This document shows positions 37,724 through 38,407 of a stretch of DNA of 64,000 bases, piece by piece (position 1 is the first letter of the stretch; every line of letters starts with the position of its first letter). Location of the stretch: the sequence record PQ666539, one strand, 5' to 3'. Both the position numbers and the translations under genes were made by a program. This DNA is from Shigella phage sb1. Below the pieces are notes generated by a model. That model did not search any database. It was not told the origin of the DNA and was given only the letters and a program-made list of their open reading frames with translations.

Positions 37724-37731
37724 TTGATTAT

Positions 37732-37745
37732 GGGGCTTCGGCCCC
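37732..37745 (+). terminator. GGGGC-UUCG-GCCCC hairpin after gene 18
   Basis: stable UUCG tetraloop hairpin just past gene 18 stop. Confidence 0.5.
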
Positions 37746-37762
37746 TATTCTCGAGGAAACAA

Positions 37763-38380
37763 GTGATTATTTCTAAGTTTGTTAAAGTGAAAATTGTACC
37801 ATCAAATTTTAAACATTATCAATCAAAGGGTTATAAATTAACACCTCTTGGAGCGGTTAAACATGGATTTAGGTATTATGAAATTGATGTTAAAGTTGAA
37901 GACATTAAAGGTAGTACCGCGTATGTAAAATGCCGTTGCGATAAATGTGGAATTGAATATAACCAACGCATTGGAAGAAACACTGATATTTGTCGTGATT
38001 GCCGTCATAAAGATAAAATGCGCAATAATTCATATGGTTCCGCGAATAAAGGAAAAACAGTAGAATGTATGCATGGCGTAAATCATCCAAGATGGAACCC
38101 AAATAAATCTGAAATGCGTGAATATATTTCATTGGTATATAAAGAAACTCGTAAGCATAAGAAAATTTGGTCAAAATGGCCAAATGCTGATAAAATAGGA
38201 GTGTGCGGTACAAAAGGTGCTTACCAACTTGATCATAAGGTATCTATCAAATACGGTTTTGATAATTTAATTCCTGCTGAAATAATTGGCGGTATTAATA
38301 ATTTAGAAATAATCACTTGGGAATCTAACCGAGAAAAGTCAAAAAGAAATAGTGTAGATCTTTGGGATTTACTAGAATGA
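37763..38380 (+). CDS. HNH homing endonuclease (free-standing)
   Basis: CxCxxC...CxxC zinc motif plus HNH-like YQLDHKVSIKYGFDN...NLEIITWESNREK; GTG start behind GAGGA. Confidence 0.6.
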   Translation: MIISKFVKVKIVPSNFKHYQSKGYKLTPLGAVKHGFRYYEIDVKVEDIKGSTAYVKCRCDKCGIEYNQRIGRNTDICRDCRHKDKMRNNSYGSANKGKTVECMHGVNHPRWNPNKSEMREYISLVYKETRKHKKIWSKWPNADKIGVCGTKGAYQLDHKVSIKYGFDNLIPAEIIGGINNLEIITWESNREKSKRNSVDLWDLLE

Positions 38381-38386
38381 TTCTAA

Positions 38387-38407
38387 AGGCCTGTTTCGGC
38401 AGGCCTT
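38387..38407 (+). terminator. hairpin after HNH gene
   Basis: AGGCCTG-TTTC-GGCAGGCCTT. Confidence 0.5.

Follow-up and report, generated by a model that had tools for sequence, protein, structure and literature searches.

What is the open reading frame (ORF) that separates the tail sheath gene (gene 18) from the tail tube gene (gene 19) in Shigella phage sb1? The window analysed here, 64,000 nucleotides of sequence record PQ666539, is a segment of a T4-type (Tequatrovirus) phage. An earlier note, made from the sequence alone, had reported an ORF of about 205 amino acids at this place, stated that T4 has no gene there, and proposed the insertion of a homing endonuclease gene. The ORF is present, from a GTG at 37763 to a TGA ending at 38380, and T4 indeed has no coding sequence (CDS) in its 116-nt spacer between gene 18 (end at 100515) and gene 19 (start at 100632). 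Free-standing HNH homing endonucleases are textbook knowledge in T-even phages, and from sequence and predicted structure we consider it likely that the ORF encodes one. The insertion and homing reading is supported because T4 and 382 of 501 T4-type records have an empty site, the insertion point is identical in all 117 occupied genomes, the gene is linked to haplotypes of gene 18, and the protein carries a fitting motif and predicted fold. On the best reading of its sequence, the protein represents a divergent HNH (beta-beta-alpha-Me) subfamily, apparently specialised for one place in T4-like phages, the 3' end of the tail-sheath gene, which would probably be its target.

Site occupancy was determined with a 120-nt probe over the T4 junction, which recovered the 501 T4-type records. 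Two versions of the gene were counted with probes for the divergent centres of the window ORF (allele A) and of the version in phage ECML-134 (allele B). Allele A was found in 47 records (including RB3, RB5-10, HY03, HP3 and sb3) and allele B in 70 (including PP01 and PST); with the uninterrupted sites, the three classes add up to 499 of the 501. Insertion boundaries were set by an alignment of the window, T4 and ECML-134, plus anchors in 16 genomes, and they matched in the 16 aligned. The insert measured 655-656 nt in six allele-A genomes and 643-644 nt for allele B, compared with 8 nt at empty sites. Sporadic presence at one exact site among close relatives is the pattern expected of a homing gene, and comparison of the junction across T4-like phages showed that the gene, absent from about 76% of the close relatives of T4, is not universal among them. 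The same distribution could be left by an old accessory gene that belongs to the tail module, passes down vertically and has been deleted many times, with loss and ordinary recombination producing the pattern; such a gene might exclude co-infecting relatives or degrade competitor DNA. We regard this as unlikely, first because so many T4-type genomes lack the gene although their flanks are otherwise more than 95% identical.

The two alleles have the catalytic C-terminus in common and differ in the zinc-ribbon part, as follows from the identities along the protein: residues 1-8 are identical, residues 9-133 share about 28% identity and residues 134-205 share 93%. The divergent part is equivalent to window positions 37790-38160; the allele-B genomes compared were ECML-134, PP01, PST and G4507. 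Judged by sequence, recombination seems to have exchanged the specificity domain. The occurrence of both alleles, with their N-terminal domains swapped, at one point speaks against a vertically inherited accessory gene.

A second line of evidence comes from the end of gene 18 itself, where a short patch of codons, 50-90 bp upstream of the insertion point, exists in three haplotypes:

37637..37675, plus strand: 13-codon patch A-R-S-I-N-Y-I-T-L-N-F-V-A (motif PARSINYITLNFVA), candidate recognition or cleavage region; the window has H1
Haplotype H1: the reference (39 nt), found in T4, at most empty sites and in this window
Haplotype H2: differs from H1 at 12 of 39 nt, all synonymous; found with most copies of allele A and also in T2
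Haplotype H3: differs from H1 at 14 of 39 nt, which changes one residue (T to Q); found with allele B

Variable sites were counted by comparing 15 T4-type genomes with the window. The 60-nt bin from -80 to -21 of gene 18 held 17 variable sites, the highest number in the last 2 kb of the gene, and the bins beside it held 5 and 1. The only comparable bin, with 16 variable sites, lay in the variable middle of gene 18. The flanks of the patch were nearly identical among haplotypes. At the protein level, no part of the sheath C-terminus was better conserved among the 13 distant phages than PARSIN(Y/F)I.LNFVA, which all of them have.

The haplotypes went with the alleles. By BLAST identity bands over evenly spaced rows, which give approximate counts for genomes that share ancestry, H2 was present in about 44 of the 47 allele A records and H3 in about 70 of the 70 allele B records. 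Exact H3 was absent from all 382 empty sites (best match 97.8%); about 60 empty-site phages, for example T2, had H2, and most empties were H1-like. In T6, the H3 patch linked to allele B adjoins an ORF at this site. The combination of allele A and H1 was seen only in sb3, Ec_YwIITB1 and this window, and sb2 was intermediate (95.6% to the H1 probe). Exact haplotype and occupancy patterns gave 0-2 matches in IMG/VR, a collection with too few T4-type contigs. As far as these approximate counts go, flanking markers are co-inherited with the gene, which is the signature of co-conversion. That each allele is linked to its own dense, almost wholly synonymous haplotype tens of bp away also argues against loss of an old accessory gene.

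By analogy with known systems, a dense, almost wholly synonymous patch linked to the alleles fits co-conversion, target-site immunity, or both. Since some allele A genomes have H1 and about 60 empty-site phages have H2, the patch is no simple immunity determinant for allele A. In the window, either the insert splits a recognition site that spans the junction, or the enzyme binds the junction and cuts upstream in the manner of I-TevI, or H1 is no substrate of the allele A enzyme. Given homing, we consider it nearly an even question whether the target lies within, or reaches into, the PARSINYITLNFVA-coding patch.

The protein was divided as follows:

37763..38020, plus strand: N-terminal domain (amino acids 1-86), beta-rich, with a Cys4 zinc ribbon; predicted local distance difference test score (pLDDT) about 90
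38021..38092, plus strand: linker (amino acids 87-110), basic and of low confidence; pLDDT 64-73
38069..38377, plus strand: predicted C-terminal HNH-like (beta-beta-alpha-Me) domain

The Cys4 zinc motif and the HNH-like core that the earlier note had picked out are both real. The zinc-ribbon cysteines C59, C62, C77 and C80 are encoded at 37937-38002. In an alignment of 35 homologs, C59, C62 and C77 were invariant and C80 was kept except in one clade with H. The N-terminal domain is presumed to be a DNA-binding or specificity module. The treble-clef family DUF4379 (PF14311) matched 10 of the 35 homologs, all below the gathering score (best E 8e-4), and did not match the window ORF; a profile search matched trypanosomatid mS66 with an E of 0.005. 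The HNH-like core, LDHKVSIKYGF...NNLEIITWESNREK, contains D157 (codon at 38231), H158 (38234), N180 (38300), N189 (38327) and K192 (38336). The first four residues were invariant across 116 diverse relatives, and K192 was invariant in two smaller alignments and kept in about 90% or more of the 116.

The AlphaFold model of the whole protein (pLDDT 85) consisted of the N-terminal domain, the linker and the C-terminal domain. Modelled alone from a diverse alignment, the C-terminal domain reached a pLDDT of 92.3 and a predicted template modelling score of 0.79. In this model strand 154-158 ends with H158, strand 181-185 follows N180, and helix 186-192 contains N189 and K192; the predicted layout is beta-beta-alpha-metal, and the positions expected of an HNH nuclease (a general-base His closing beta1, a structural Asn, and an Asn or His for metal binding in the next helix) fall into place on the predicted fold and are conserved. 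The closest structures, over about 70 aligned residues, were the small stand-alone nucleases Gme HNH (4h9d) and the HNH of phage GVE2 (5h0o), whose beta-beta-alpha-metal core the predicted domain may share. The family of this domain is large, with 3743 cluster representatives at E<=1e-3, and in relatives it is fused to helix-turn-helix, NUMOD3, sigma-70 region 4 and zinc-ribbon modules, a build that, by comparison, is typical of homing endonucleases. A DUF7487 domain was seen in 14 relatives, and two relatives are labelled McrA by JGI.

A zinc-ribbon DNA- or RNA-binding regulator, catalytically dead or never a nuclease, whose C-terminus only resembles HNH, would be improbable given this conservation. 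The would-be catalytic D-H, N, N and K are exactly the invariant residues across the 116 relatives, and they sit at beta-beta-alpha-Me positions, which a decayed domain would not conserve. By sequence and model, the protein is well supported as a putative HNH-type nuclease, and it is a member of no curated HNH sequence family.

At this position the gene is no sporadic oddity: each of the 13 distant T4-like contexts examined, with identities as low as about 33%, has the homolog directly 3' of the tail-sheath gene. The annotated contexts were Klebsiella phage RCIP0032, Shewanella phage Thanatos-2, VR7, Serratia phage CHI14, Bp7 and Sinorhizobium phage phiM7, and seven more were metagenomic contigs. 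The gene downstream of the homolog is no tube gene in phiM7 and in contig L031; the constant partner is therefore the sheath gene. The stop codon of the sheath gene and the start of the ORF share bases in two contigs (TAATGAT), and the ORF was intact in 232 of 236 tblastn-positive phage records. The constant position and the intactness also count in favour of homing; together with the overlap, which suggests tight co-expression, they are what favours an accessory gene of the tail. A gene can be useful to the phage and selfishly mobile at once.

The same contexts bear on a role in DNA packaging, in which the protein would be an HNH accessory factor of the HK97 gp74/GVE2 HNH type and partner the terminase encoded two genes upstream. 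An HNH gene of this kind would be terminase-adjacent and present in all members of the group. Here the neighbour of the gene in every context was the sheath gene and never the terminase, and the gene is missing from T4 itself and from about 76% of T4-type genomes. T4 gp17 already has its own nuclease domain and packages DNA by a headful mechanism, and the N-terminal module of the ORF is variable and looks sequence-specific. We hold such a packaging role to be very improbable.

Several results weigh against a homing endonuclease. Pfam and NCBIfam scans of the ORF gave nothing significant, and neither curated HNH profiles nor PDB profiles matched it significantly; the profile hit by which the earlier note would have checked its HNH assignment was thus not obtained, and only a few relatives had sub-threshold matches, to HNH_4 (E about 1e-3) or HNH_5. 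No published nuclease activity, cleavage site or biased inheritance was found in the literature for any family member. Strict synteny over great distances is, in sequence terms, also expected of an old vertical accessory gene with frequent loss. The haplotype counts are only approximate, and the window, sb3 and Ec_YwIITB1 pair allele A with the T4-type H1 patch. Despite these points, we retain a homing endonuclease gene as the likely identity of the ORF.

Other searches were also negative. A PADLOC scan of the ORF gave no match, and none of 37 close homologs (0/37) had a precomputed Pfam domain. Searches against PDB chains with the ORF, a full-length alignment and two C-terminal alignments returned only zinc-finger or spurious leucine-rich-repeat matches, and a Foldseek search of the PDB with the two-domain model returned none. 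Kinship with the annotated HNH endonuclease of phage Bp7 was considered, and hhalign of the C-terminal profile showed none. Literature searches found no characterisation of an endonuclease between genes 18 and 19 or of 'gp19.1'.

The inserted segment and the elements around it show how the gene may be expressed:

37724..38379, plus strand: inserted segment, 656 nt in place of the T4 octamer TACGGTGC, from the alignment with T4
37732..37745, plus strand: insert-borne hairpin GGGGC-UUCG-GCCCC (GGGGCTTCGGCCCC), which folds and is absent from T4
38386..38407, plus strand: ancestral gene 18 terminator hairpin with a GGCCTG-TTTCGG-CAGGCC core, identical in T4 and now 3' of the ORF
38407 and 38466 (38407..38473), plus strand: two late promoters TATAAATA, ancestral and identical in T4, which serve gene 19 and not the ORF

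From ATTCTAAAGGCCTGTTTCGGCAGGCC onward the window and T4 have a common sequence, with the terminator hairpin, both late promoters and gene 19; the final base of the ORF stop codon already belongs to it. The earlier note had placed the ORF between the terminator hairpin of gene 18 on one side and a hairpin of the ORF itself, plus the gene 19 late promoters, on the other. All these elements exist; the roles of the two hairpins have to be exchanged. The downstream hairpin (GGCCTGTTTCGGCAGGCC at 38388-38405) has a fold of -16.1 kcal/mol (z -3.6) and, being identical in the shared T4 sequence, is the ancestral terminator of gene 18; the upstream one, judging from the alignment, arrived with the insert. 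The same 14-mer hairpin sits between the sheath gene and the homolog in Thanatos-2, and comparable GC hairpins occur at that place in other relatives. Thanatos-2 infects a different host genus (Shewanella), and the match of the cassette's own hairpin to this phage is a further point against an accessory gene passed on vertically.

The gene 18 late promoter box TATAAATA lies at 35708. Between gene 18 and the ORF, neither a late box nor a convincing sigma-70-like site was found, therefore the ORF must be expressed by read-through of the gene 18 late transcript. Ahead of this promoterless ORF, the upstream hairpin is probably a terminator or attenuator, or a stabiliser of the gene 18 mRNA 3' end. 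Sequestration of the ribosome-binding site by this hairpin is not claimed, as the extended fold was not better than shuffles (z -0.8 to -0.9). A group I intron or other structured RNA was rejected, with no Rfam match within 37400-38700.

The coding part of the locus was delimited as follows:

35744..37723, plus strand: gene 18 (tail sheath), the upstream neighbour, whose late transcript must carry the ORF
37724-38380, plus strand: mechanical ORF, 218 amino acids from a TTG start
37753..37759, plus strand: Shine-Dalgarno-like GAGGAAA, with 6 nt separating GAGG from the GTG start
37763..38380, plus strand: ORF as called, 205 amino acids, from GTG 37763 to the TGA at 38378-38380
38488..38979, plus strand: gene 19 (tail tube), the downstream neighbour

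GTG 37763 was taken as the true start because of the GAGGAAA upstream of it, the N-termini of homologs and the start codons of related loci. At this position, MI(I/T), mostly MIISK, was the N-terminus in 35 of 35 aligned homologs, and in related loci a GTG or ATG stands there with ATT as the next codon. The 216-amino-acid form annotated in some genomes would start inside the GC hairpin and is unlikely to be real.

With these elements, homing could proceed in the following way. Late transcription that starts at the gene 18 promoter would read through the UUCG hairpin into the ORF, and translation would begin at GTG 37763. When a phage without the ORF infects the same cell, the zinc-ribbon domain would bind DNA at or near the 3' end of the sheath gene or the 18/19 junction. 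The tethered HNH domain would then nick or cut there, with H158 as general base and N189 as metal holder. Recombinational repair off the donor genome would copy the cassette together with neighbouring gene 18 markers. Carrier genomes would be protected by the split junction, the recoded patch, or both.

Among the closest known systems is MobE of T4. The gene mobE is promoterless, its product nicks a polymorphic site in a neighbouring gene, and the pattern of a dense, almost wholly synonymous patch over a constrained motif, beside a free-standing endonuclease gene and linked to its alleles, has been reported for MobE and nrdB (PMC2790892). Like MobE and other Mobs, the ORF is free-standing and lies between essential T-even genes (PMC2790892; PMC2988022). 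It shares with MobE the lack of a promoter and the need for upstream transcription, an RNA structure that limits expression (here predicted), a target thought to lie in a conserved neighbouring gene, polymorphisms that separate carriers from non-carriers, and an HNH-type nuclease domain that is likely nicking, as predicted here from sequence and model. In contrast to the Mob proteins, with which it has no sequence relationship detectable by Pfam profiles, the ORF has its HNH domain at the C-terminus behind a zinc ribbon, whereas theirs is at the N-terminus (PMC2790892), and its site is 18/19 rather than the nrd region of MobE. Membership in the Mob family was ruled out by this reversed domain order and by the absence of an HNH_3 or NUMOD4 Pfam match at E<=1.

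With the Cas9/McrA-type HNH (HNH_4, COG1403), the ORF shares the layout D-H-x-x-[SP]...N-L...N-x-x-K; it differs in that the scores of its relatives stay below the Pfam gathering threshold, in a nuclease domain without flanking CxxC pairs, and in a wholly different context. Hef of phage U5 and I-Bth0305I belong to the Vsr-like EDxHD family (PMC3239194). Hef is, as the ORF would be, an orphan free-standing homing endonuclease of T4-related phages, and 'Hef-like' genes are listed beside tail tube genes in LIMEstone1. A Hef-like identity was considered since a 'hef-like' gene adjoins a tail tube gene, and it was rejected since the 205-amino-acid sequence has no EDxHD and an H-N-N core instead. 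I-TevI likewise has two domains, a flexible linker and a zinc element, and can bind the insertion point and cut tens of bp upstream (PMC2988022), but it is a GIY-YIG enzyme and intron-encoded. The analogy serves just as a model in which allele A and the H1 patch of this window could be reconciled.

In most genome records the ORF is labelled 'hypothetical protein'; a few pipelines give it as a 'homing endonuclease', 'HNH endonuclease' or 'type II restriction endonuclease'. It corresponds to PHROG 5104 (phrog_5104, 'unknown function') and is named '19.1' in some related phage records (VR7, vB_SsoM_113); the VR7 annotation reads 'gp19.1, similar to T6 gp19.1'. The ORF is richer in AT than its neighbours (32% GC vs 39-40%), in line with the homing reading, and no paralog was found within the window. 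The 2-kb region around it matched 534 phage records, most closely Shigella phage sb3 (98.6%). The record MG010123.1 of SAJK-IND ('Staphylococcus phage', 32 kb) contains a T4-type gene 18, the ORF and gene 19 at 97% identity, and is probably mislabelled or contaminated.

Essential genes of the window contain in-frame stops, at 34975-34977 and 35461-35463 in gene 17 and at 36125-36127 (TAA) in gene 18, where the next codon is also changed. T4 gp17 presumably has Gly and Glu at the positions of the TGA and the TAA in gene 17. The ORF itself is untouched by the stops of genes 17 and 18. Over 4.9 kb around the ORF, the window has 37 private substitutions (18 transversions), compared with 1-22 in 15 related genomes. 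The stops and the excess look like sequencing or assembly error or added noise rather than a viable phage. Two private changes in otherwise invariant regulatory sequence probably belong to this excess, an A-to-T at 38406, directly 5' of the first TATAAATA box, and a C-to-A at 38483 in the Shine-Dalgarno region of gene 19 (AGAGGCTAATATG to AGAGGATAATATG).

Further candidate nucleases were seen in the same module of other phages. Besides its 18/19 homolog, Bp7 has a second annotated HNH endonuclease gene between genes 19 and 20 (3769-4350 of the stretch compared), and its portal gene is annotated in two pieces (4408-5630 in the same stretch); this may be a mobile nuclease that interrupts or abuts the portal gene. 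The large terminase of metagenomic contig L028 (1-1920) has 938 amino acids, compared with about 610 in T4, and a faint LAGLIDADG_3 match, which suggests an intein or inserted endonuclease in gene 17. A small NUMOD3 ORF lies upstream of the sheath gene in L031 (1078-1317), and a GIY-YIG ORF upstream of the terminase in L033 (1-183). Mobile nucleases seem to be concentrated in the packaging and tail module. In HY03, the large terminase (1-1713) is annotated as two overlapping CDS, a hypothetical protein and the terminase, hinting at a frameshift or at a gene split in annotation.

In T4-like phages, among them many therapeutic candidates, free-standing homing endonucleases are a driving force of gene exchange and of marker exclusion. 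The present case adds an HNH-like subfamily without a profile, its strict linkage to the sheath gene within the conserved module for tail and packaging, an apparent swap of specificity domains between alleles, and a concrete predicted target: the 39 bp of gene 18 that code for PARSINYITLNFVA, the 18/19 junction, or both. PHROG 5104 ('19.1') gains a name and a testable function, and a large HNH-like domain family, overlooked by current profile libraries, comes to light. The homing reading would also explain why synonymous variation peaks locally in a structural gene that is otherwise very conserved, which bears on phylogenetics and on the design of engineered or cocktail phages.

More tentatively, these results may belong together, although we rather doubt that all parts hold at once. 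The ORF would be the first recognised member of a large unannotated HNH-like clade, which comprises about 3700 clusters (50% identity) and lacks a Pfam model. One of its lineages would have tracked the sheath gene of the T4 superfamily over deep time by way of the PARSINYITLNFVA-coding DNA, and two alleles with swapped zinc ribbons would compete for one T4-type site, each locked to its own synonymously recoded haplotype. The phage might use the nuclease against co-infecting relatives. If true, a selfish nuclease and an essential structural gene would here be seen engaged in an arms race.

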